Shown here in pieces: positions 1,818-42,493 of a stretch of 47,024 nucleotides of DNA. The notes below the pieces were generated by a model. That model did not search any database. It worked only from the letters and a program-made list of their open reading frames with translations, and was not told where the DNA came from. The translations under genes were made by a program, and so were the position numbers. The number at the start of each line of letters is the position of its first letter. Position 1 is the first letter of the stretch. The DNA is taken from assembly GCA_031255175.1 (NCBI GenBank), contig JAIRTA010000091.1, forward strand, positions 1 through 47,024. Direction: 5' to 3'. The DNA comes from Oscillospiraceae bacterium. Lineage in GTDB: Bacteria > Bacillota > Clostridia > Oscillospirales > UBA929.

Positions 1818-2462
1818 TTATGCGCGTTTTCGCACCGCCTGCACCACCAGCGCGCGGCCGCGGGCAATCGCGATCTCCACGGGCTCCCCCGTTCCCAGCG
1901 GTTCGTTGCTGAGCCCCAGCGTCTCCGTCCGCCTCAGTTCGGCGTCTGTGAGAGAAAAGCGCAGACCGCGCAGCGTCACGCCGGAGATACAGCCGTCCAG
2001 CGGGATGAGCGAGAGATACACAAAGGCGTCCGGGTTCGCAATTGTCATGACGCCGCCGGTGTGAAGCCGGATCTCGTGCCGCGCGTCCACAATCTGCGCG
2101 CGCGCGCCCTTCTCGGCGCAATACTCCAACAGGCCCAAATTTCCCAGGAAATGGTCCAAGCGGGGCCCGCCGCCGCAGCCCAGCATGAGAAACTCATCAC
2201 AGCCGTTTTGCAGGCCGTAGTCCAAACAGGCCTGCAGGTCTGTCTGGTCCTTCTCGCGGGGCAGACGAATGACCGATGTCCCCGGCGGCGGCCACCGCCC
2301 GCCGGAGTCCGCGTCCCCTATCAGCGCGTGAAACCGGAGACCGAGCGCGCGCGCGTGGCGCAGTCCGCCGTCTGCGCACAGCACCATGTCGTCCGGCCGC
2401 AGGTAGCCCGACACATAGTCCGACTTACCAAGCGGCGCCGCTCCCAACACCAAACCCCGCAT
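1818..2462 (-). CDS. thiN: Thiamine diphosphokinase
   Basis: 214 aa with the LIGDADS and EKDQTD motifs of the TPK catalytic domain plus a C-terminal thiamine-binding-like domain. Syntenic with B. subtilis yloS. Confidence 0.8.
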   Translation of the reverse strand: MRGLVLGAAPLGKSDYVSGYLRPDDMVLCADGGLRHARALGLRFHALIGDADSGGRWPPPGTSVIRLPREKDQTDLQACLDYGLQNGCDEFLMLGCGGGPRLDHFLGNLGLLEYCAEKGARAQIVDARHEIRLHTGGVMTIANPDAFVYLSLIPLDGCISGVTLRGLRFSLTDAELRRTETLGLSNEPLGTGEPVEIAIARGRALVVQAVRKRA

Positions 2463-2505
2463 TCACCGTGCCCCTCTCTATCTCTGTCGAACGTCGCTCC
2501 GCCTC

Positions 2506-3375
2506 TCAAAACCGCTTTCGCTCCGACGCGGCGCGGTGGAGCCGCGCATAACTCGCGTGCCGGGAGGGCCGGATCACCCCGCGCGCCAGCGCCTCCAGCA
2601 CAGCGCAGCCGGCCACGCCGATATGGTGACAGCCCGTAAACCGGCAGGCGCCCTCAAACGGCCGGAATTCCGGGAACAAATCCCGCAGCCGGACCGGGTC
2701 CAGGTCCTCGTCGTCAAACGTAGAAAACCCCGGCGTGTCGGCCGCCCAGGCGCCGCCCTGCATGGGCAGAAGTTCCGTATGGCGCGTGGTGTGCCGCCCG
2801 CGGCCGCCCCGGTGGCTGACATCGCCCACCCGAAGCGCGAGTTCCGGCCGGAGCCGGTTGAGCAGGCTCGACTTTCCCACGCCGGAGTTCCCTGTAAAGG
2901 CAACTACCTTTCCGGCAATGAGCCGCGCCAACTCATCGACGCCCTCACCCGTCCCGGCACTCAAAAGCACGGTTGGGTAGCCAACCGCGCGGTACACCTC
3001 CGCCAATTCACCCGCCGGCTTGATGTCGATCTTGTTGAAGCAGATGAGCGCCCCAATCTCCCTGGACTCCGCCAGCGCCGTCATGCGGTCGATCAAAAAC
3101 GGGTCCGTCTCGGGCACGGCCTTGGCGCCGACGATGACAAGCGTCTCGATGTTGGCCACGGGCGGGCGGGCAAACGCGTTTTGCCTGGGCAAAATCTCGT
3201 CGATGAGACCGGAACCGTCCGGCAGCACCCGCAGCCGCACGCGGTCGCCGGGCAGAGGCCGGAGACGCTCCAGCCGCAGCCGGCCGCGCAGCTTGCAGAC
3301 AACGGTCGTCCCGTTGTCCCAGACGGTGTAAAAGCCGCCGACGCCCTTGAGAATCAACCCCTCACGTTCCGCCAT
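2506..3375 (-). CDS. rsgA: Ribosome small-subunit-dependent GTPase A
   Basis: 289 aa with circularly permuted GTPase motifs NKIDI ... GNSGVGKSSLLNRL ... and a C-terminal zinc cluster CRFTGCHH. Confidence 0.9.
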   Translation of the reverse strand: MAEREGLILKGVGGFYTVWDNGTTVVCKLRGRLRLERLRPLPGDRVRLRVLPDGSGLIDEILPRQNAFARPPVANIETLVIVGAKAVPETDPFLIDRMTALAESREIGALICFNKIDIKPAGELAEVYRAVGYPTVLLSAGTGEGVDELARLIAGKVVAFTGNSGVGKSSLLNRLRPELALRVGDVSHRGGRGRHTTRHTELLPMQGGAWAADTPGFSTFDDEDLDPVRLRDLFPEFRPFEGACRFTGCHHIGVAGCAVLEALARGVIRPSRHASYARLHRAASERKRF

Positions 3376-3379
3376 CGGG

Positions 3380-5452
3380 TCAGGGCAGGTCGCTCATGCG
3401 GTACTCCTCGTACTGCACGCTGTCGATATAAACCCGCACGCTGTCGTCCACGTAGCCGGACACTGCGCAGGTGTAGTATATGTCGAGTGTGCTGACCTGC
3501 TCGTTTCTGACGATGTTGTTTCCGACGTACACCGTCACCTGCACCTGCTCGGGTGAGGACGGCAGCGCCACGCGCAGTGTCCGGGTCAGCAGCAAATCGT
3601 CCGGTATTGAGGGCGACGTGCTGACGGGCCCGTCCGGGCCGTCCGGCGGCGGCGGATCGTCCGACGGCGGCGGAGATTCGACCGGCCCCCGGCTGACATC
3701 CACATCGATCACGGTCCTCTTCTCGACCTCCGTGTATTTTTCGACGCTCTGCCCGACGATCGTACCCACGGGCTTGTCGTTGTCAACATTGCGTTTGACG
3801 CCCACGACAAGATCTATCTGTTCCAGCACGCGCGCCAGATCGTCCACCATAGTGTCGGTCAAGTCGGGCACGCGCACCATCTGCATCTCAGGCCCCTTGC
3901 TGACGATGAGGCGGATGACGTCGCCCTCGTGTACGTCGTCGCCGTTTTTCGGCTCGGTGCTGATCACCATGCCCTCCACCAGATCGGAATTGACATATTC
4001 CGGTTCGCCGAATTTCAACTTGAGCCGGGCGAGCTCCCGCTGGGCGTCCCGGTAATTCATATTGCTGTAGTCGAGGAGCTGGAACGTGTAGCGCCCCAGA
4101 CTGAGCGTCACCGTAACGGTCTCACCCTTCTTGTGCATCTCGCCCTCCCGCGGGTCCTGCTCCAGGATGACGCCCTCCTCGGCCTCGTCGGAGTACTCCC
4201 CTTCCTCGCTGCGAACAATGGTAAAATTTTCCTCATATCGCGGGTTGTTCCTGACTTCTCTCTCGTAGTGCAGCCCGACCAAGCCCGGCACCTGCACGTC
4301 TTCCGCCGGCTTGTCATTGCCCGCGAGCAGTTGGAGGATCAAAAATCCGAGGCCCGCCACAAAGACAAACACCGCCAGCACACCGGTGAGCACGGTGATC
4401 TTACTGTTGCGGCGGCGAACCCGGTAGTCCTCCTCTTCCAGTTCCTCCTCCGAGCGCGGCGCCGTGCGCCCGCGCCCCTTCGACGGCGCGCGGCGGCGGT
4501 CGGACGGCGCCGGACGTTCGACGGCGTTGAGCGCCTCCCGGGTCTGCCCCAGCGGTCGGGTCGGCTCCTCCACCGCCGCGTTCTCCTGCGGGTGGAACCC
4601 GCTCAGGTCGTAGTCAAAGCTGATGCTCGGATTTTTTCTAAATTCTTCCAAATCGTGCAGCATGGCCTCGGCCGACGTGTAGCGGTGCGTCAGGCTGGCC
4701 GACATGGCCTTCATCGTGATGATCTCCAGCGCCTCCGGCACCTCGGCGTTGATCTCACGGGGTGAGAGCGGCATGGAGTTGATGTGCTGGATGGCCACCG
4801 ACACGGGCGAATCGCCCTCGTACGGGAGCCGCCCTGTCAGCATCTCGTACATCACAACGCCCACGGAGTAGAGGTCGGAGCGGGCGTCTATGTGGCTCCC
4901 GCGCGCCTGCTCGGGCGAGATGTAGTGCACGGACCCAAGCGCCTCCTGCGTCAATGTGTTCTGCACGGACACAAGCCGGGCAATGCCGAAGTCGGCCACT
5001 TTGACGCTGCCGTCGCGCAAAATCATGATGTTGTGGGGCTTGATGTCCCGGTGAATGATGCCGCGCCCGTGGGCGTGGCTGAGCGCTTTGACAATCTGCG
5101 TGGTAAAATGCAGCGCCTCCCGCCAGTTCAGCACGCCCTTGCGCTGCATATACTGCTTGAGCGTGATACCGTCGATCAGCTCCATGACGATGTATTCCGT
5201 GTCTATAGAACGGCTGACGTCGTACACCGCGACGATATTGGGGTGCGACAGCATTGCCACGGCCTGGCTTTCCGCGTGGAATCGGCGGCGGAAATCGGCG
5301 TCTCTGGCGTAGTCCTCCCGCAGAATCTTCACGGCCACAAAGCGGTTGAGCCTATGGCAGCGCGCCTTGTAGACCACAGCCATGCCGCCGCTCCCGATGA
5401 CCTCCAATATTTCATACCGGTTGTCCAGCATTTTGCCGATATACTTTTCCAC
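3380..5452 (-). CDS. prkC: Ser/Thr protein kinase with extracellular PASTA repeats
   Basis: Hanks kinase motifs GSGGMAVVYKA, VAVKIL, HRDIKPHN, DFG, SPEQ. One TM segment (ITVLTGVLAVFVFVAGLGFLILQLL) followed by three PASTA-like repeats. Start set to the GTG at 5452, 9 nt after AGAGGAGG (the track used TTG at 5476). Confidence 0.9.
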   Translation of the reverse strand: MEKYIGKMLDNRYEILEVIGSGGMAVVYKARCHRLNRFVAVKILREDYARDADFRRRFHAESQAVAMLSHPNIVAVYDVSRSIDTEYIVMELIDGITLKQYMQRKGVLNWREALHFTTQIVKALSHAHGRGIIHRDIKPHNIMILRDGSVKVADFGIARLVSVQNTLTQEALGSVHYISPEQARGSHIDARSDLYSVGVVMYEMLTGRLPYEGDSPVSVAIQHINSMPLSPREINAEVPEALEIITMKAMSASLTHRYTSAEAMLHDLEEFRKNPSISFDYDLSGFHPQENAAVEEPTRPLGQTREALNAVERPAPSDRRRAPSKGRGRTAPRSEEELEEEDYRVRRRNSKITVLTGVLAVFVFVAGLGFLILQLLAGNDKPAEDVQVPGLVGLHYEREVRNNPRYEENFTIVRSEEGEYSDEAEEGVILEQDPREGEMHKKGETVTVTLSLGRYTFQLLDYSNMNYRDAQRELARLKLKFGEPEYVNSDLVEGMVISTEPKNGDDVHEGDVIRLIVSKGPEMQMVRVPDLTDTMVDDLARVLEQIDLVVGVKRNVDNDKPVGTIVGQSVEKYTEVEKRTVIDVDVSRGPVESPPPSDDPPPPDGPDGPVSTSPSIPDDLLLTRTLRVALPSSPEQVQVTVYVGNNIVRNEQVSTLDIYYTCAVSGYVDDSVRVYIDSVQYEEYRMSDLP

Positions 5453-35131: not shown

Positions 35132-35261
35132 GCCAAAGGCGGCCGGGCGCGTCCGCCGCCGGCGCGCGGCTCTTATGAAAATTCTGCTTGCCGTTATAGA
35201 AAAATATGGTATTTTTCGAAACTTGCAACCTTCAAACCGCCGTGCATACGCAGGAAACCTT

Positions 35262-35290
35262 TTGACTTTTACCCCGGCGGCTGGTACAAT
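35262..35290 (+). promoter_or_regulatory. rnpB promoter
   Basis: TTGACT (35262-35267), 17 nt, TGgTACAAT (extended -10; hexamer at 35285-35290). The predicted start, about 7 nt downstream, coincides with the RNase P RNA 5' end. Confidence 0.7.
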
Positions 35291-35297
35291 ATTGGGT

Positions 35298-35662
35298 GCG
35301 AGTAAGCCGGGCAGTCGCGTGCGCAGCGCTGAAAGGCCGCGCACGAGGAAAGTCCGAGCTCCATAGGGCAAGGATAACGGGTAACGCCCGCCGGAGGCGA
35401 CTCCAGGAATAGTGCAACAGAGATATACCGCCTGGCAGCTGCCGGTTCGCCGGCGGTGATCCAGGTAAGGGTGGAAAGGCGAGGTAAGAGCTCACCGGCG
35501 CCCGGGAAACCGGGCGGCCCTGTAAACTCTATCCGGAGCAACACCGTTCAGTGGGACACGAGGCTGGCCCGGCCGTCCCCACAGGTGGCTGGAGCCATGT
35601 GGCAACGCATGGCCTAGATAGATGACTGTTCAAGACAGAACTCGGCTTACAGACTTACTCGC
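35298..35662 (+). ncRNA. rnpB: RNase P RNA (bacterial type A)
   Basis: Universal blocks read directly: GAGGAAAGTCCGAGCTCCATAGGGCA, GGGTAACGCC, AGTGCAACAGAGA, CAGGTAAGGGTGGAAAGG, GGTAAGAGCTCACC, GTAAACTCTATCCGGAGCAA, ACAGAACTCGGCTTAC. The 5' GCGAGTAAGCCG is complementary to the 3' CGGCTTA/CTTACTCGC. Ends are good to about 10 nt. The track ORFs on the minus strand here are spurious. Confidence 0.92.
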
Positions 35663-35667
35663 CGGCC

Positions 35668-35697
35668 GCGCGCGGGGGGCTTTTGTCCCCCGCGCGC
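35668..35697 (+). terminator. GC-rich hairpin immediately after rnpB (terminator or processing stem)
   Basis: GCGCGCGGGGG-GCTTTTGT-CCCCCGCGCGC, an 11-bp perfect stem with no T-run after it. Confidence 0.4.
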
Positions 35698-35851
35698 AAT
35701 GCCGAACGCCCGACAGAGACGGCCAAAAGCTGAATCTGAAAATTTTGTCCCCCGCGCGGTGCGAACCGTACGCTGCGGCACGTGTCGGCGTTTTCGGCGT
35801 ACAAAACAGGCGGCGCGGCGTCCGCGCGCCGGCGGAGAGAGGGTGACGCGT

Positions 35852-36561: not shown

Positions 36562-37629
36562 ATGTCGGCAGAATTCTTTTTGGGCGCCAACACCCCGGCA
36601 GGGTTTTATTCATTATACGATGGGCTCATCGACACGGACACCGCGCGGGACGTCATCGTGCTCAAAGGGGGGCCCGGCTGCGGGAAGTCCACTTTTATGC
36701 GTCGGGTCGGCGCGTTGGTGGCCGACGCCGGTCACAGCGTCGAATTCATTCTCTGCTCCTCCGACCCGGACTCGCTGGACGGCGTGGTTTTTCCCGGCCT
36801 GAAGGCCGCCGTCGTCGACGGCACCGCGCCCCATGTGGTGGAGCCCGTCTTCCCGCTGGCGGTCGAGCGCTACTGCAACCTGGGCGCGCACTGCGACGTA
36901 GACGCCGTTAAGCTGCACGTGGCGGAGATCCGGCGGCTGACCCGCGCAATCCGCCCCTGTTACGCGCGCGCCACCCGCTGCCTGTCCGCCGCCCGCGCGC
37001 TGGAAGACGACATGTTTGACTGCGTGCTGAACAACGCGGCGCTGGATACGCTGGCGCGCCGCGCGCGAGGGATCATCAGCCGGGAGATCAAACCGGGGCC
37101 CGGTCCGGCGCTGAAAAAACGTTTTCTCAGCGCCATCACGCCGCGCGGTCTGCTCTGCCGTCACGACACGGCGCACGCCCTCTGCCCCCGCCTCTACGAA
37201 TTGAACGACGACTACGGGCTGGCGCATATGATGCTCTCCCCCATCCTGGAAGCGGCTCTCGCCGCCGGGCAAGAGGCTATCGCCTGCTACAGCCCGATGA
37301 ACCCGGACCATCAGCTCGAGCACCTGCTGTTCCCCGGCCTGGGGGTCGGTTTTGTCTCCTCCGGGCATCTGCACGCCTACGACGGAAAACCCTTCCGCCG
37401 CCTGCGCTTAAACGCCTGTCTGGACCCGGAGCTGCTGCGCCGTCATCGCGTCCGTCTGCGCTTTCTGCGCAAGACCGAGCACGCCCTGATGGCCGAGGCG
37501 GTGGGGGCGCTGGCCGACGCCAAACGTCTCCACGACGAGCTGGAGTCCCACTACTGCCCTCACATGGACTTTGCCGCCGTCAAACACTGCGCCGACCAAA
37601 CCGCCGCCTGTCTCTTGCGCCAGGCATGA
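36562..37629 (+). CDS. P-loop NTPase of unknown function
   Basis: 355 aa with Walker A GGPGCGKST near the N-terminus and a possible Walker B AAVVDGT. I cannot name a family. The ATG at 36562 follows GGGAGGGA. Host-like GC. Confidence 0.7.
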   Translation: MSAEFFLGANTPAGFYSLYDGLIDTDTARDVIVLKGGPGCGKSTFMRRVGALVADAGHSVEFILCSSDPDSLDGVVFPGLKAAVVDGTAPHVVEPVFPLAVERYCNLGAHCDVDAVKLHVAEIRRLTRAIRPCYARATRCLSAARALEDDMFDCVLNNAALDTLARRARGIISREIKPGPGPALKKRFLSAITPRGLLCRHDTAHALCPRLYELNDDYGLAHMMLSPILEAALAAGQEAIACYSPMNPDHQLEHLLFPGLGVGFVSSGHLHAYDGKPFRRLRLNACLDPELLRRHRVRLRFLRKTEHALMAEAVGALADAKRLHDELESHYCPHMDFAAVKHCADQTAACLLRQA

Positions 37630-37635
37630 CAAAAA

Positions 37636-37661
37636 CACCCCGCAGTCGCCGCTGCGGGGTG
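37636..37661. terminator. Bidirectional intrinsic terminator at the left island border
   Basis: CACCCCGCAG-TCGCCG-CTGCGGGGTG. T-rich (TTATGTT) after it on the plus strand and TTTTT after it on the minus strand (plus A-run 37631-37635). It serves the converging ATPase gene and the island operon. Confidence 0.85.
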
Positions 37662-37753
37662 TTATGTTAGACGCAGAGGAATTGGAAATTTCAGGTTTTT
37701 CAAAGCCCCCGTTCCGCGGTGGCCGCGAAAAGGATCCGCCGTTCAGCGGGTTC

Positions 37754-38908
37754 TCACTTTTCGCTTCGTTTCAATGTCACTACAAACCAATTTTTCTCTC
37801 TGTCATCGAAAAAATCGATGTCAGGATAGCAGCTCAAAGCACGCAAAATGCCGGAACCGTAACCGCGATAAGGCAACACATGATTTGCAAACGAGGCCAG
37901 CAGAGGGTTCCTTGCATTTGAGTTTCCCGATTTGATGTTCGCAACTGTCAAATTATTCGGCAAATGCCCGGGACTTCTTATTTCTACACGGTTCCGAAAA
38001 ACAAATACCTGCACAGGCGCAGAAAGAAAATAATCGCGATGGATCAGTGCATTGGCAACAAGCTCTTCAATGGCTTCGGGAGGAATCTCCGGTATGCCCA
38101 CACTGTTTATGCCCTGCTCCCCTTGAATATGCCGGAGATTAGAGACAATAAAACTGACCGTCTGCCGAAACACATCGGACAATTTCCCTGTGATATCGCG
38201 GCTGTCATTGTACCCGGTAGCGGCAAGATCATTTGCGTCAAAGGCGCCCGCCTTGACGATGAAAATAGGCAGCCTAAATTGTGGTGACTTTGAAAAGAGC
38301 AATGTGGCGGCGACATTGAGAGAATCGTCTTTCAACAAATTCATATTTTCGAGAATCTTCGGCAATGGCAAGGTTTGCGCGTCCAGCGTCCGACCAAAAC
38401 GTCTTTGGAAAAAATCTCCAAAATATTCCAGATCTAAATCGGCTGTCGTGACGCCCGCAACCGGAAGTTCGTCCGCGTGGACAAGACTTGACGCTTGAAA
38501 CAACCGCTGTATTTCCTCACGAGAGGTCGCTTTCCGTTTATCAGCGCCATTTTTTACCCAGAATATACCATCCTTATCTTGATACGGCTTATTGATGCCG
38601 GAAGAGATGTCAACCACCACAACAAGTCCGCTATCTGTCATGATATTCTCAGTCGAGGGATTGATCGCGGGTTGAATCCATTGACTGGCGACATTGGATA
38701 TCATCTGATTTAAGCGGCGCACATCGTCGCCGGTCAACCCGGAAATTGAACCATCGTCGTCAACACCGATGAATATTTTACCTCCGCCTCCGTTGCTAAA
38801 AGCAACCATTTCAGAGGCCAGCGCTTCTCGACTGTTTATGTTTTTTTTAAATTGCCGGCTGCTGTCCTCACCGCGTTCCAGAAGAGATAAAAGTTCTATG
38901 ATTTCCAT
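37754..38908 (-). CDS. AlbA_2 (Schlafen-like) nucleic-acid-binding domain fused to a GHKL-like (HATPase_c_4-type) C-terminal domain
   Basis: 384 aa. The N-terminus, LLERGEDSSRQFKKNI...EMVAFSNGGGGKIFIGVDDDGSISGL, fits the AlbA_2 pattern (E..EFK, then AF.N..GG.i.iGV.D.G). The C-terminus, EELVANALIHRDYFLSAPVQVFVFRNRVEIRSPGHLPNNLTV...RNPLLASF...RGYGSGILRAL, fits the family often mis-annotated as RecG-like. AT-rich codon usage. RBS AAGGAG about 10 nt upstream. Confidence 0.75.
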   Translation of the reverse strand: MEIIELLSLLERGEDSSRQFKKNINSREALASEMVAFSNGGGGKIFIGVDDDGSISGLTGDDVRRLNQMISNVASQWIQPAINPSTENIMTDSGLVVVVDISSGINKPYQDKDGIFWVKNGADKRKATSREEIQRLFQASSLVHADELPVAGVTTADLDLEYFGDFFQRRFGRTLDAQTLPLPKILENMNLLKDDSLNVAATLLFSKSPQFRLPIFIVKAGAFDANDLAATGYNDSRDITGKLSDVFRQTVSFIVSNLRHIQGEQGINSVGIPEIPPEAIEELVANALIHRDYFLSAPVQVFVFRNRVEIRSPGHLPNNLTVANIKSGNSNARNPLLASFANHVLPYRGYGSGILRALSCYPDIDFFDDREKNWFVVTLKRSEK

Positions 38909-41511
38909 ATTTTATAAATCTCCTTTCTTCTTTCGAACGCCTCTTCGCCGCCCTCCATAATGACAACAATTTGTTCCTGCTGTGTGGGGTTGTCAATGCT
39001 GCCGCTTTGGATAGAAATTTTCGTATCTGAGAGCGAGCAAGCATGTATTTGTTCGGCGTCGCCAAGGACAGGAATATTTGGATTGTGTGTCGCAAAGATG
39101 AATTGTATTTTTGGTTTTAATCTACATATCAATTTAATGACATCTTCATAAATGCTTCGGTTGTCAAGATCATCTTCCGGCTGGTCGATAATGACAACAT
39201 CGTTTTCTTGCTGGCCCAACACAAACAAAATCAACGCCGACGCTCGTTGCCCCAGCGAATGCTCCGCGAGTTTCTTGTCATGGTACATAATGGTATATTT
39301 ATTGGGTGTCTGATAGGTGAGCAAATTTTTCAGATTTTGGTTGAACAGATCGGAAAACTTATCAGGGCTGCTGCCAAACATATTTTTTGCGTTTTCAAAA
39401 TCACAGTAAATATCAGAAAAACTCGAATATTTTTCAACGAGATTTTGTAAAGTAACCTCTCTTGTGTTGCTGCCTCTGAATACATTTTTGAAATAGTCAC
39501 GAAACGCGGCTTTATCTTCCTTAAACTCGACTGAAAATCTCAGTGCCGTGTTTTTTTGAGAAATCTCATCCAATTCAGCCTTGACCATTTGGAATTCTTC
39601 ATGCCAAAGATCATTCAGCTTATGCAATTCTTCATATAGATTGTTTTGGACCGTGTTTTTTTGGTCTTTGTTTTTTGAAAGTGCCGCCAATTTTGTCTCG
39701 GCGGCAATCAATTGTTTTTTGGCCGCCAAAAATTCATCTGTACTGATGTTTTGTCCAATGGCAGTTTTTAGTTCCGTCGCAAGCACTCGCTCGACCTCAG
39801 CGAACTCATCTGCCAATCCGTCCCGCGCCACGAGAAGTTTTTCATGTTCTTTCCTCAATATATCAAGAACCGCTTCCGACCCTGCCAATTCCGCTTTTAT
39901 AATTTCTATGCTTTGAATGCTCCGCATGAAATGTCCGTCGAATTTTTCAAACAATTCAGCGTTGTTTTCAGAAGTATACCCGGAAAAATTGCGCAATTCA
40001 TCCTCGTGTTTTGCGAGCAAATCCCGAATATCGGAGGCAAGTAGTTCAATCAGATGTATCCCTTTTTGGGCCTTGCGAATATCCGCTTCAAAACCGAGAC
40101 GTTTTTGCAATCTTTCTTCGAGTTTGTGTTCTTTATAAAAATTGAGTCGAAATTCCATATTCTGTTTTATTTTTGTCTGTTCTGCGATGAGCTCATCGAC
40201 ATTGCTAATTTTTGACAATCTGTCAATGGCCTCTATGACTCTCGATTTTTGTTCGGCAATTCGACGATGGATCTCATCGCATTTGGTGTTCAATAATTTC
40301 TCAATCAGATCTTTTCCCGAATCTTTTCCGGCAGTGGCAAGTTCTTTTTGACCAAAAAACAGCGGCTTATTTAAAACAGTTTCGCGAATGGAAACGCCTG
40401 GCTGCCATTTTTCCTCGATGAACACTTTGGCGTTTTCTTTCAATATCCGCCTGATCTGATATGGCTGCCCGTGGCGGTCTACGACATCGAGCACAACTCT
40501 GCCCCCGCTGCCAAGTGTGCGCTCCACCAATCTCTCCTTATATCCGCGCTCGCTGTCATTTTCTTCAAGCCGAATGTCCAAAACATAGCGCAAAGCCTCT
40601 AAAATCGAGGATTTTCCACTGCCGCGGATGCCGATAAAGGTGTTGAGTTCCGGTGAAAAACAGATCGTCTGTCCGTCCAGCGTCCCACCCTCAAAACGCA
40701 TTTGTCTGATATGCGAATGCGTATATTGCGGCACACTTTCTGAACACACGCGATGCTCATAATCTGCCAGCGCGAATTTAACGGCTTCAAATGTGAACGC
40801 GCCGAGTTTGAGATAACAGGCTTTCTTTTGCCCAATCTGCTCAATATTTTTGGGGTCGCTGCCCTCCACCTCCGCAGGATACCACCCTCTGAGCCAGTGT
40901 TTGACCTTTTGCCGTTCGTCCTGCGTTCTGACCTGCTGAAAACCCCGTGTCCGCTCTCTAACTGTTTGATATCTTGAGCCACACCACTCCTGGAATCTCC
41001 CGCCGCCGATTTCGTGCCACAGGCCCTTGCTGTCCTCAACATGGGCAAAAATCAGAAAATAATCATATCCCGATTTTTCAAGTTCTTCCACCGTTTGCAA
41101 GATGTTTTTATCACTGCACCCATTCTTATTTTCATACTCTGTCCGCGCCTTGCCGGGGAACATAGCATTCAGAAACGGAGATATCTTATCATTTCCATTC
41201 TCAATCCATGTATCGGCAAAGACAACCAAAACATGGGTGCCATTTGCGCCCTCGCCCACAGACAATTCGACACCGGGGAGTAAAAATATATTTTCCTTCT
41301 TTGCCGTTTTCCGCAACGCGCTGAACTCTTCCAGCTTGAATTTGTTGTGATTCGCAATTACGCCGACACGTATACGCGCCCTCTTTAACGCGTCAACATA
41401 GTCAGTGTTATAATAATTCTCATCACCGGAATACCCAAATTCTCTATCTGCCTTGGTGTGCAGATGGAAATCCGCTCGCATCCACGCGGCTCCGTTTGAA
41501 AACAAATTCAT
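38896..41511 (-). CDS. PHP phosphoesterase fused to a Rad50/SbcC-like coiled-coil ABC ATPase
   Basis: 871 aa. PHP motifs: ADFHLHT (13-19), VIANHN (51-56), GVE (80-82), THV (92-94), FAHVED (155-160), GSD (217-219). Walker A GIRGSGKSS (294-302). A long helical Lys/Glu/Leu-rich insert (about 400-700). Signature-like HSLGQRAS (751-758). Walker B/D-loop VVIIDQPEDDLD (772-783). H-loop FATHN (806-810). RBS GAGGTGA before the ATG at 41511. Confidence 0.8.
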   Translation of the reverse strand: MNLFSNGAAWMRADFHLHTKADREFGYSGDENYYNTDYVDALKRARIRVGVIANHNKFKLEEFSALRKTAKKENIFLLPGVELSVGEGANGTHVLVVFADTWIENGNDKISPFLNAMFPGKARTEYENKNGCSDKNILQTVEELEKSGYDYFLIFAHVEDSKGLWHEIGGGRFQEWCGSRYQTVRERTRGFQQVRTQDERQKVKHWLRGWYPAEVEGSDPKNIEQIGQKKACYLKLGAFTFEAVKFALADYEHRVCSESVPQYTHSHIRQMRFEGGTLDGQTICFSPELNTFIGIRGSGKSSILEALRYVLDIRLEENDSERGYKERLVERTLGSGGRVVLDVVDRHGQPYQIRRILKENAKVFIEEKWQPGVSIRETVLNKPLFFGQKELATAGKDSGKDLIEKLLNTKCDEIHRRIAEQKSRVIEAIDRLSKISNVDELIAEQTKIKQNMEFRLNFYKEHKLEERLQKRLGFEADIRKAQKGIHLIELLASDIRDLLAKHEDELRNFSGYTSENNAELFEKFDGHFMRSIQSIEIIKAELAGSEAVLDILRKEHEKLLVARDGLADEFAEVERVLATELKTAIGQNISTDEFLAAKKQLIAAETKLAALSKNKDQKNTVQNNLYEELHKLNDLWHEEFQMVKAELDEISQKNTALRFSVEFKEDKAAFRDYFKNVFRGSNTREVTLQNLVEKYSSFSDIYCDFENAKNMFGSSPDKFSDLFNQNLKNLLTYQTPNKYTIMYHDKKLAEHSLGQRASALILFVLGQQENDVVIIDQPEDDLDNRSIYEDVIKLICRLKPKIQFIFATHNPNIPVLGDAEQIHACSLSDTKISIQSGSIDNPTQQEQIVVIMEGGEEAFERRKEIYKIWKS

Positions 41512-41566
41512 ACCCTTTCACCTCACTCCAGAAGCGTTTTTGCCACGATGATCCATGATTTATGTA

Positions 41567-42493
41567 TCAAACACTTGAATCATCCATCCGGGCGCCATCG
41601 CGCCGGATGGGCTTGCCGGTTGCCGAGAGGAACATGGAGGCCACCATCAGCGCGGCGCCGGCCAAAAATGCGACGGTGATCCGGTCGTAGCCAAGCAGGG
41701 CGGAAAACAAAACCGCGAAGACCGACTCCGTACACAGGACAACCGCCACGGAGGCGGCGGGCAGCCGCGCCTGTACAAAGGTTTGCGCGAAGGCGCAAAA
41801 TCCCGTTGGGAACACGCCCAAAAACAGCAGGCCCAGCCCCGTTTCGGCCCAGGGGATGTCCGCCGTAAAAGGCTGCTCCCGCACGAAAGAGATGAACAGC
41901 GACAGGGCCGACGACACGAAGAGCTGGATGGCGGTGAAGTTGACGGGATGCACCGAAGGGGCGTACTTCCCCAGCAGCACAATCTGCACCGCCAGCGCCA
42001 CCGCGCAAAACACGCTCAGCAGGTCGCCCGCGTTGAGGGAAAAGCGCTCGAAGAGCACGTTTGAGATCAACAAGACGCCCGCGAAGCCCACCGCCGCCGC
42101 GAACAATGGCCGCGGTGTCCAGACCCGCCGGGCCGCCATCAGCAGCAGGGGCACAAAGATCACATAGAGCCCGGTGAAGAGCCCGTTCTTCGCCGGGGTG
42201 GTGATGCCCACTCCAACCGTCTGAAGGACATACGCCGCAAAGGTGACGGCCCCCAGCAGCGCGCCGCAGCGGAACTCGTCGCGCCGCAGCGGGGTGCGCC
42301 CGCCGAACGCCCGGCACGGCCGCAGGCACAGCAGAAGGACGCCTCCGAGCAAGAAGCGAAGGCCCAGCAAAAGGAAGAGAGGAAACCCCTGCGTGAGCAG
42401 ATTCTTGACCACGATGAAGCTGTACCCGAAGACAACGCAGACAAGCAGCATCAACGCGAGATAGCCGGCGCGCGCCGCACCCTCACGCCTCAT
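41567..42493 (-). CDS. EamA/DMT-family transporter
   Basis: 308 aa with about 10 TM segments in two EamA-like halves. The ATG overlaps the stop of the upstream SLH gene (ATGA). Confidence 0.85.
   Translation of the reverse strand: MRREGAARAGYLALMLLVCVVFGYSFIVVKNLLTQGFPLFLLLGLRFLLGGVLLLCLRPCRAFGGRTPLRRDEFRCGALLGAVTFAAYVLQTVGVGITTPAKNGLFTGLYVIFVPLLLMAARRVWTPRPLFAAAVGFAGVLLISNVLFERFSLNAGDLLSVFCAVALAVQIVLLGKYAPSVHPVNFTAIQLFVSSALSLFISFVREQPFTADIPWAETGLGLLFLGVFPTGFCAFAQTFVQARLPAASVAVVLCTESVFAVLFSALLGYDRITVAFLAGAALMVASMFLSATGKPIRRDGARMDDSSV

Follow-up and report, generated by a model that had tools for sequence, protein, structure and literature searches.

A TrlF-family ATPase gene and a coupled Schlafen-like gene form a conserved, horizontally spread cassette, a candidate defense system, in a foreign island of an Oscillospiraceae bacterium

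PrrC and RloC are anticodon nucleases encoded in Type I hsd operons; both join an ATP-binding cassette (ABC)-type ATPase to a tRNA-directed nuclease fold, and the coiled coil of RloC is Rad50-like. Ppl was reportedly introduced by Gao and colleagues in 2020 as a one-gene system against phages. It protects Escherichia coli against T7 and against Bas63Δ130, that is, Bas63 without gp130 (PMC11482910), and is reviewed as a single-stranded DNA 3'-5' exonuclease that needs 3'-OH ends and is inhibited by nucleoside triphosphates bound to its PHP and NTPase domains (PMC12904381). Among prokaryotic Schlafens (pSlfn), the most frequent architecture, at 34%, is a Schlafen domain with a histidine-kinase-like module; it is not among the two shown to be protective, DUF262-Slfn and the Ig-like RorSlfn5, which are single proteins acting as tRNases, are activated by phage and require an E-x4-(E/D)-x-K motif (Taboada et al., bioRxiv 2025.07.24.666596). 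Schlafen-histidine-kinase proteins are frequent beside bacteriophage exclusion (BREX) loci (PMC12839542). Here we analyze a stretch of 47,024 nucleotides (nt) from an Oscillospiraceae bacterium (GenBank assembly GCA_031255175.1, contig JAIRTA010000091.1, positions 1 to 47,024), hereafter the window, in which an AT-rich island at 37662-41566 carries two overlapping genes encoding P1, a TrlF-family protein related to Ppl, and P2, a Schlafen-like protein.

The P1-P2 pair is a widely travelling conserved unit with a patchy and horizontal distribution, and the island that holds it in the window is horizontally acquired, compositionally foreign DNA. The pair is a strong candidate for defense, and its predicted make-up is that of a nuclease system of the Ppl type to which a Schlafen-like protein has been added as obligate partner. 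We favor, with a probability of roughly 0.55, the reading that the island is a horizontally acquired, self-contained two-gene cassette directed against phages or mobile DNA, in which P1 would be an ATP-gated nuclease and P2 a non-catalytic sensor or regulator. P1 has the predicted layout of Ppl, with an N-terminal PHP phosphoesterase followed by an ABC-type NTPase in a protein of ~870 to 880 amino acids (aa), and the two align end to end. P2 shares with pSlfn proteins the Schlafen/AlbA_2 domain, the histidine-kinase-like module and the link to defense islands, but its clade carries E-x4-Q-x-K and is coupled to a separate PHP-ATPase gene.

Relatives of P1 are present in at least 581 of ~186,000 species-representative genomes (one per species), and more than 3600 homologues at 57 to 77% identity are spread over Clostridia, Bacteroidota, Synergistota, Chlorobiota, Gammaproteobacteria and others. 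Locus analysis covered the best-scoring 80 of the at least 581 relatives, 75 of which were informative in having enough downstream sequence, and neighbors were taken from mechanically called open reading frames (ORFs). Of the 75 informative loci, 68 (91%) have an intact P2 homologue, 50 to 65% identical to P2, that begins shortly ahead of the P1 stop; two more loci hold a frameshifted or internally deleted P2 (bringing the share to 93%), and P2 is missing from five. This arrangement differs from that of Ppl, which acts as a single gene. The overlap is conserved as well, P2 starting 13 nt before the P1 stop, with a tblastn offset of -6 in 63 of 68 loci, which suggests that the two genes are translationally coupled. 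The identities of P1 and P2 homologues to the window proteins correlate over 67 loci (r = 0.64, p = 7e-9), and the closest database homologues of P2 lie on the same contigs as those of P1. A preliminary description of this stretch, made from the letters alone, had been ready to give up its proposal of a defense locus if the two families did not recur together elsewhere; they do, with the same overlap.

The surroundings of the pair are rich in restriction-modification (R-M) genes. All 40 E. coli records hold both genes, and the pair is annotated by RefSeq in 38 of 5426 complete E. coli genomes (0.7%). In E. coli JJ2434, where the two products are annotated as 'TrlF family AAA-like ATPase' and 'RNA-binding domain-containing protein', the gene order is hsdR-P1-P2-hsdS-AAA-hsdM, and this Type I operon is cargo of a Tn7-like transposon. 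The transposon (L081, NZ_CP013835.1, 2715-19796) encodes TnsA, TnsB, TnsC and a TnsD-family protein and is inserted between yhiN and yhiM; within its R-M cargo, the operon is broken up by the TrlF-Schlafen pair and, between hsdS and hsdM, by an additional AAA ATPase gene. Besides E. coli, the pair lies within Type I R-M operons of Enterobacter, Azospira, Pseudogulbenkiania and Vogesella. The immediate same-strand neighbors (n = 59) include ~10 HsdR-type proteins, 9 HsdS and 6 N6/N4 methylases, along with MmeI, PglZ (BREX), AIPR, DUF1016/YhcG nucleases and DUF1156, so that restriction, BREX or abortive infection (Abi) proteins make up roughly half of the 59, while tblastn detects hsd genes at only ~15 of 80 loci. 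Where P1 occurs without P2, four of the five genes adjoin restriction genes: the neighbor is HsdR in L038 and Mrr in L072, and in both L053 and L061 a methylase is found together with a ResIII helicase; the fifth (L065) has no restriction neighbor.

The pair is also carried by mobile elements. P2 lies next to a TrlF gene on ~50 plasmids, mostly conjugative; the conjugative carriers come from Klebsiella, E. coli, Pseudomonas and Yersinia, and pYR3 and pPsv48B are plasmids that carry the pair by itself, amid transposases and recombinases. A larger set of 224 plasmids (117 from Escherichia, 16 from Listeria) encodes a P1 relative at E <= 1e-30; we rejected these 224 as carriers of the pair since only ~50 encode a P2 relative, and the P1 relatives on the remaining ones presumably belong to PHP-ABC families that lack a Schlafen partner, such as Ppl or Spaf_1101-like proteins. 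Phage genomes contain essentially no full-length close homologues. Occurrence in R-M and BREX loci, on plasmids and in a transposon, with next to none in phages, is what is expected of a defense cassette. Three contigs picked for their absence from the P1 list hold, in one case, an internally deleted P1 (L090, 4810-7176) and, in the other two, P2 alone: an orphan gene at 2029-3192 of a contig from a Bathyarchaeota metagenome-assembled genome (L089) and one adjoining a methylase gene (L091, 6001-7164). All three P2 copies retain E-x4-Q-x-K. Other decayed copies include an internal deletion of P2 (L034, 12613-13059) and a frameshift in P2 (L010, 4024-5116).

The features of P1 are as follows.

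38896..41511, minus strand: P1, TrlF family (NCBIfam NF045780), 871 aa, in which a PHP-like phosphoesterase is joined to an ABC/SMC-type ATPase that has a coiled-coil insert
40717..41496, minus strand: PHP-like phosphoesterase, P1 residues 6-265, with a DFHLHT motif and conserved His, Asp and Glu residues
40297..40686, minus strand: N-terminal half of the ABC head, P1 residues 276-405, with Walker A GSGKS at 297-301 and Q-loop Q388
39547..40284, minus strand: predicted antiparallel coiled-coil insert, P1 residues 410-655 (AlphaFold helices 412-653, with a break at 508-517)
38899..39546, minus strand: C-terminal half of the ABC head, P1 residues 656-871, with signature SLGQR at 752-756, Walker B D776...E779, D-loop D783 and H-loop H809

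P1 matches the equivalog model NF045780, 'TrlF family AAA-like ATPase', at 540 bits (E 1.8e-161, cutoff 350), with residues 6-867 aligned to positions 1-944 of 944. The Ppl profile NF042955 aligns over almost its full length too (residues 7-862 against 1-878 of 882) but at 151 bits (E 3e-44) against a cutoff of 1000; the two families are thus separate, and P1 reads as a full-length distant homologue of Ppl rather than as a member. It aligns end to end also with the Spaf_1101 family profile, far below the cutoff. Pfam recognizes only the ABC/SMC-type ATPase (AAA_21, 41 bits against 27, residues 619-813; SMC_N). In PADLOC-DB v2.0.0, P1 matches 21 families: the Ppl model covers the N-terminal 300 residues (1.5e-32), while the mad3, AriA, PtuA and GajA matches are restricted to head motifs. 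Against PARIS AriA, Septu PtuA, Gabija GajA, MADS mad3, AbiL and PDC-M49, P1 gives only partial matches of this kind (E 1e-16 to 5e-3), and P2 matches none of the PADLOC partner models of known multi-gene ABC ATPase systems. The PADLOC and profile searches proposed in the preliminary description thus identify the families and call no system.

Both predicted active sites of P1 are strictly conserved. In the N-terminal region, H16, H18, D22, H55, E82, H157 and E159 are kept in 78 of 78 homologues and D14, H93 and D219 in 77 of 78, a set that probably represents the metal ligands of a PHP domain. The CehA/McbA metallohydrolase model matches this region at 9.9e-6, below its cutoff, and the Pfam PHP model (PF02811, gathering threshold 26.4 bits) finds no match in the window protein and scores 15.6, 17.7 and 25.0 bits in three homologues. 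In the ATPase head, where SMC_N, AAA_29 and RecF matches fall at residues 276-313, G297, K300, S301 and Q388 as well as SLGQR, D776/E779, D783 and H809 are invariant in all 78 homologues, completing the ABC/SMC ATPase motif set. The AlphaFold model of P1 has a predicted local distance difference test (pLDDT) score of 55.6 and is confident only in the ~245-residue coiled coil; the alignments used for P1 and P2 contained few sequences (12 and 25), none of them less than 57% identical. Foldseek with this model returned MukB, Wadjet JetC, Rad50 and SMC coiled coils as best matches, at low TM-scores, and, for the N-terminus, the PHP proteins 3e0f and 7ug9 (RNase AM) at probabilities of 0.96 to 0.98; given the low confidence of the models, such fold matches lend weak support. 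A sequence search of the PDB with P1 found nothing beyond SMC/Rad50 head motifs, leaving no usable Ppl or TrlF structure. Compared to L086, the genome with the closest pair, the ratio of nonsynonymous to synonymous substitution rates (dN/dS) of P1 is 0.093, indicating purifying selection.

The combination of ABC heads split by a coiled coil with a predicted metal-dependent nuclease recalls Wadjet JetC/JetD, Lamassu and SbcCD/Mre11-Rad50. Unlike in these SMC/Rad50-type systems, P1 carries its predicted nuclease in cis, as a fused PHP domain in place of Toprim or Mre11, and there is no kleisin or KITE protein. The coiled coil is also short, with no zinc hook, its apex (about residues 508-517) lacking the hook Cys.

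The features of P2 are as follows.

37754..38908, minus strand: P2, prokaryotic Schlafen (AlbA_2) plus minimal histidine-kinase-like ATPase, 384 aa, its start overlapping the P1 end by 13 nt
38528..38869, minus strand: Schlafen/AlbA_2 domain, P2 residues 14-127 (Pfam PF04326, 79.3 bits against 25.3, E 4.4e-22)
38846..38869, minus strand: Gln variant of the catalytic motif, E14-DSSR-Q19-F-K21, P2 residues 14-21, in place of E-x4-(E/D)-x-K
37829..38020, minus strand: HATPase_c_4 (GHKL-like), P2 residues 297-360 (PF13749, 49.4 bits against 26, E 4.7e-13)

In P2, glutamine (Q19) occupies the position of the second acid of the catalytic Schlafen RNase motif, and this variant is characteristic of its clade. 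E-x4-Q-x-K is present in 72 of 73 P1-linked P2 homologues and, in a survey of 1.84 billion cluster representatives, in 71 of 74 that are at least 40% identical to P2; among representatives less than ~38% identical, canonical E-E-K becomes the prevailing form (17 of 36). Further degeneration is seen in a few Gln-clade members (QQT, ERC, DIR), which suggests that there is no selection for catalysis at this site. An AlbA_2 paralogue in L013 that is not linked to P1 retains ESKTIEFK, the canonical E-x4-E-F-K. It is one of several distant AlbA_2/HATPase_c_4 paralogues, 22 to 30% identical to P2, found less than 10 kb from the pair (L003, 5937-6983 and 12567-13214; L013, 7683-8729; L075, 7944-8426). 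The occurrence of E-x4-Q-x-K instead of the catalytic motif in the P1-linked Schlafen clade is what is new here.

Among other residues of P2, E14, K21 and D51 are invariant in alignment A2, as are N286, H290, R291, G314, G349, G351 and G353, in line with a predicted minimal GHKL ATP-binding module. The dN/dS of P2 against L086 (0.082) again indicates purifying selection. The only solved structure in the PDB with significant sequence similarity to P2 (1.1e-9) is 3lmm, the Corynebacterium diphtheriae protein DIP2311 (COG2865-type, 'RecG-related'), which is also the best full-length Foldseek match (1.3e-13) of the weak P2 model (pLDDT 58.2); DIP2311 differs in having 583 aa with extra C-terminal domains, whereas P2 ends right after HATPase_c_4. 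With the N-terminal domain of the same model, Foldseek returned SLFN11, SLFN13, SLFN14 and the SAMD9 tRNase domain.

Much of what the preliminary description had said about the two proteins stands: its domain calls agree with the ABC/SMC ATPase and PHP-like N-terminus of P1 and with the SLFN_AlbA_2 and HATPase_c_4 matches of P2. Its statement that both domain classes act on nucleic acids may, in the case of P2, which has no second catalytic acid, be true of binding and not of cleavage. It had also called the locus undescribed, which is right for the pair as a system, for which we found no description anywhere in the searchable literature, and not for its parts: P1 falls in a named, curated NCBIfam family (TrlF) and is a homologue of Ppl, P2 belongs to the known Schlafen/AlbA_2 and HATPase_c_4 families and has the commonest pSlfn architecture, one that recent papers connect to defense, and both genes are annotated in RefSeq, in E. 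coli genomes as well as on plasmids. A PHP-ATPase partner for Schlafens is not mentioned in the preprint text (bioRxiv 2025.07.24.666596), and the searchable literature yielded no paper in which a bacterial Schlafen is coupled to a PHP protein. Nor could it be traced there where the name TrlF comes from, the term returning only spectroscopy (TRLFS) and an unrelated TrlF of tropolone biosynthesis.

The island and its borders in the window comprise the following elements.

37662..41566, minus strand: foreign island with the two-gene cassette (G+C z = -9.4; tetranucleotide distance 0.657 against a host maximum of 0.221)
41512..41566, minus strand: leader of 55 nt between the EamA stop and the P1 start, with a GAGGTGA ribosome-binding site
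37736..37749, minus strand: small hairpin CCGCTGAACGGCGG with a T-rich tail, right after the P2 stop (terminator scan)
37634..37663, no strand assigned: GC-rich hairpin with a perfect stem of 12 bp and, after it on the minus strand, TTTTGT (terminator scan; inverted repeat I11, 100% complementary)

The island (3905 nt) has a G+C content of 0.449 (44.9%), compared to a mean of 0.662 (standard deviation 0.023, minimum 0.611) in 354 windows of the same size taken elsewhere in the 47 kb, and its tetranucleotide L1 distance to the host exceeds that of any host window. In 300-nt windows, G+C is 0.65 to 0.70 up to ~37650, 0.36 to 0.52 up to ~41560 and 0.61 to 0.78 beyond, and the G+C content at third codon positions (GC3) is 0.474 in P1 and 0.486 in P2 but 0.77 to 0.85 in seven neighboring genes. 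The encoded proteins shift accordingly, the fraction of A+R+G+P being 0.219 in the island and 0.348 in the host neighbors and that of K+N+I+E+F 0.339 and 0.205, respectively. Exactly two long ORFs are present, both on the minus strand with the 13-nt overlap, and nothing else lies between the host genes.

These data bear out the preliminary description in its account of the island. The sharp composition break that it had reported from individual 60-nt lines is reproduced (0.35, 0.367 and 0.433 inside against 0.60 and 0.70 outside), as are the amino acid switch toward K/N/I/E/F and the presence of just two overlapping minus-strand genes of 871 and 384 aa, and the sliding-window G+C and tetranucleotide analysis that it had suggested separates island and host clearly. 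It had placed the left edge against a GC-rich terminator, which corresponds to the hairpin at 37634-37663; this is likely the terminator of the P1-P2 operon and also stands directly after the plus-strand P-loop ATPase gene. At the right edge, 55 nt indeed separate the island from the EamA stop, and the EamA tail is AT-rich, its last 24 nt having a G+C content of 0.417 compared to 0.683 just before. By eye, an inverted repeat, CCATCCGG...CCGGATGG, can be seen at ~41583-41612, inside the 3' end of EamA and just before the AT-rich turn.

Neither the preliminary description nor our scans found mobility signals at the site: no integrase or transposase gene adjoins the island, no direct repeats above chance flank it, and no tRNA or tmRNA gene is present in the whole window. 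Of the hallmarks of classical genomic islands, it therefore shows foreign composition and absence from close relatives, though L086 has the pair near EamA, and lacks an integrase or transposase, a tRNA or tmRNA target and flanking direct repeats above chance. A conserved non-coding block in the window (35245-35706), 94% identical to relatives whose flanking genes are ~85% identical, was considered as a tmRNA or tRNA integration site and rejected; it owes its conservation to the bacterial class A RNase P RNA (266 bits, 35299-35665, plus strand, between SpoVT-like and UDG genes), which is 2 kb away with two host genes between.

Comparison to related genomes shows that the site is variable. In L083/L084 and L085, whose flanking ATPase is 85 to 86% identical, nucleotide synteny with the window extends from ~26.4 kb to 37614-37618, where homology ends together with the P-loop ATPase gene; different low-GC DNA (0.40 to 0.53), unrelated to the island, follows, marking the site as a variable spot. 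Beyond the breakpoint (~37615-37630), L083 encodes unknown proteins of 493 and 444 aa and an SLH protein (from 11069), and L085 an ABC-transporter-like cluster (from 9852). As none of this cargo is recognizably defense related, the idea of a defense hot spot was dropped. No genome with an empty site, in which the P-loop ATPase gene adjoins EamA, was found: the relatives on the ATPase flank carry other cargo, and the one on the EamA flank, L086, carries the pair. The sole occurrence of the exact EamA protein is on a short contig belonging to the same strain.

L086 has the closest homologues of the pair (P1 76.6%, P2 84% identical), on the same side of EamA, and its flanking proteins are 95.6% (CheV), 89% (SLH) and 78% (EamA) identical. 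Its genes on the far side differ, and a GC-rich aldo/keto reductase gene with a ferredoxin domain (2707-3903), with no homologue in the window, lies between EamA and the pair, so that the EamA-island junction differs between the two genomes. The L086 pair is itself low in G+C (0.38 to 0.51) and has no R-M genes. Nucleotide homology between the window and L086 comprises exactly the two coding sequences and ~35 nt of leader; this proximal part of the leader thus belongs to the cassette. The EamA tails diverge from ~41621, which is compatible with, but no proof of, the plausible suggestion in the preliminary description that the junction may have rebuilt the 3' end of EamA. Synonymous divergence (dS) is 1.48 for P1 and 1.10 for P2, close to saturation, compared to 0.32 to 0.53 for CheV, SLH and EamA, a 2- to 4.6-fold excess, and the nearest homologues after L086 are found in other phyla (69 to 71% identity for P1, 76 to 79% for P2). 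Most simply, either the pair was acquired twice at this variable region or it was acquired once, long ago, and later replaced by another allele; accelerated synonymous change in compositionally foreign DNA is a possible alternative source of the high dS.

The idea that the pair is a vertically inherited core whose odd composition reflects function rather than origin draws on L086, a relative of the host with the pair on the same side of EamA. We consider it very improbable, given that the pair is missing from the ATPase-side junction of two further relatives, that GC3 is 0.47 to 0.49 against 0.77 to 0.85, that dS so exceeds that of the flanking genes, that the next homologues belong to other phyla and that the same pair is found on plasmids and a transposon in Proteobacteria. 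The preliminary description had taken relatives with both genes in host-like composition as the mark of such a core; what we find is a low-GC pair in L086 and two relatives without the pair at the site. Its proposal of a candidate defense locus gains from the neighborhoods rich in R-M and other defense genes and from purifying selection, but the insertion is not private to this genome, since L086 also has the pair.

In the reading that we favor, P1 would dimerize through its ATP-binding heads and coiled coil, nucleotide binding and hydrolysis would act as a gate, and the PHP domain would degrade foreign DNA from free ends or nicks, as homology to Ppl and to SMC/Rad50-type ATPases suggests. The Glu-to-Gln change at the second catalytic position, set against the strict catalytic conservation of P1, suggests that P2 is not the killing enzyme. 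With its Schlafen fold and minimal GHKL module, P2 might instead serve as a nucleic-acid-binding sensor or regulatory subunit that licenses P1 or steers it to the invader, and the putative translational coupling points to a complex of the two. The presence of two invariant active sites in P1, together with the loss of a catalytic acid under strong constraint in P2, favors this division of roles. More specifically, TrlF-pSlfn could be a two-component immune system in which a Schlafen has been turned from an RNase effector into a catalytically dead sensor controlling a Rad50-like, ATP-gated PHP nuclease, a proposal that we put forward only as tentative.

The main rival to this division reverses the roles according to the logic of PrrC and RloC: P1 would sense DNA ends or the loss of a neighboring restriction enzyme, and P2, its Gln variant still competent, would be a Schlafen tRNase that shuts down translation in abortive infection. 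The pair in E. coli JJ2434 does resemble PrrC and RloC in bringing an ABC-type ATPase and a tRNase-type fold into a Type I hsd operon, and its position between hsdR and hsdS mirrors that of prrC. No sequence relationship to PrrC or RloC was detected, however, neither being among the 21 PADLOC families matched by P1, and the pair differs in consisting of two polypeptides, in an ATPase with its own predicted PHP nuclease, in the altered tRNase-like motif and in occurring outside R-M loci as well. For bacterial Schlafens that are fused to other domains, cleavage in the anticodon arm of tRNA, leading to abortive infection, is described (bioRxiv 10.1101/2025.07.24.666596), and Schlafen-HisK-wHTH proteins beside BREX have been read as back-up RNase effectors (PMC12839542). 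E14, K21 and D51 of P2 are invariant and orphan P2 genes exist, which also speaks for this rival, but Gln occupies the motif in nearly all linked homologues and close representatives, Glu appears in distant relatives, and some members have lost more of the motif. Moreover, a pure sensor would not need the complete, invariant PHP-type site of P1, and P1 stands without P2 in the five loci that we regard as restriction linked (four directly beside restriction genes). The rival is thus weakened by the Gln, and we consider it unlikely.

Still less likely is that the pair is an R-M accessory, acting as a back-up when Type I restriction is inhibited or as a processor of restriction products, and that without R-M, as in the window, it is an inert remnant. 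Its embedding in the Type I R-M operons of five genera, the dominance of R-M proteins among immediate neighbors and the restriction genes beside all but one of the P2-less P1 genes would fit this reading, but the pair stands alone on pYR3 and pPsv48B and at many genome loci, hsd genes being few overall. The window genes, moreover, are of full length with all conserved residues present, and their dN/dS is below 0.1 relative to L086, a genome with no R-M at the pair. A role outside immunity, in DNA-end processing or repair, as a fused analogue of SbcCD/Mre11-Rad50, or as an addiction module that stabilizes the mobile elements carrying it, seems more doubtful again. The architecture of P1, a nuclease fused to a Rad50/SbcC-like ATPase, with Rad50, MukB and JetC among its Foldseek matches, would suit such a role, as would the frequency of the pair on conjugative plasmids beside recombinases, transposases and toxin-antitoxin genes; yet the patchy horizontal distribution, with 57 to 77% identity across phyla and presence in 0.7% of E. 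coli genomes, the embedding in R-M and BREX loci and the homology to anti-phage Ppl are typical of defense, not of repair genes.

Several observations weigh against the favored reading of P1 as nuclease and P2 as its non-catalytic regulator in a defense cassette. What we say of the functions of P1 and P2 we infer from sequence, and no experimental account of the pair was found in the searchable literature. Assignment of the P1 N-terminus to PHP is remote, the window protein having no Pfam PHP match and its homologues scoring below the cutoff, and confidence is low in both AlphaFold models. Replacement of Glu by Gln is no proof that P2 has lost RNase activity, and the orphan P2 genes in L089 and L091 suggest that P2 may also function independently. 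None of the models in PADLOC-DB 2.0.0 calls the pair, and its Ppl model reaches no further than the N-terminal 300 residues of P1. No other defense genes adjoin the island in this genome, and ~30% of prokaryotic Schlafens are not near known defense genes (bioRxiv 10.1101/2025.07.24.666596). Finally, no sigma-70-like promoter was found in the 55-nt leader and no operon promoter was identified in the window, so that the genes might be read through from EamA.

The copy in the window, alone between housekeeping genes, looks intact and is an ordinary member of a widespread cassette; the interest lies in the cassette and not in this insertion, which is one more copy. If the pair is a working defense system, it would add to the catalogue a common module that current detection tools would miss or mislabel, and it would illustrate how a nuclease system of one gene, Ppl, can come to be controlled by another protein. 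The pair would also constitute a natural experiment on Schlafen function, in which the catalytic Glu has been replaced by Gln under strong purifying selection. If the more specific, tentative proposal is true, P2 would be the first 'pseudo-nuclease' Schlafen serving as the sensor of an immune system, and Ppl-type attack on DNA ends would be linked mechanistically to the Schlafen branch of immunity that bacteria have in common with animals. The question of a sensor role for Schlafen folds, in place of an RNase role, becomes testable, and the E. coli and plasmid alleles make the experiments straightforward.

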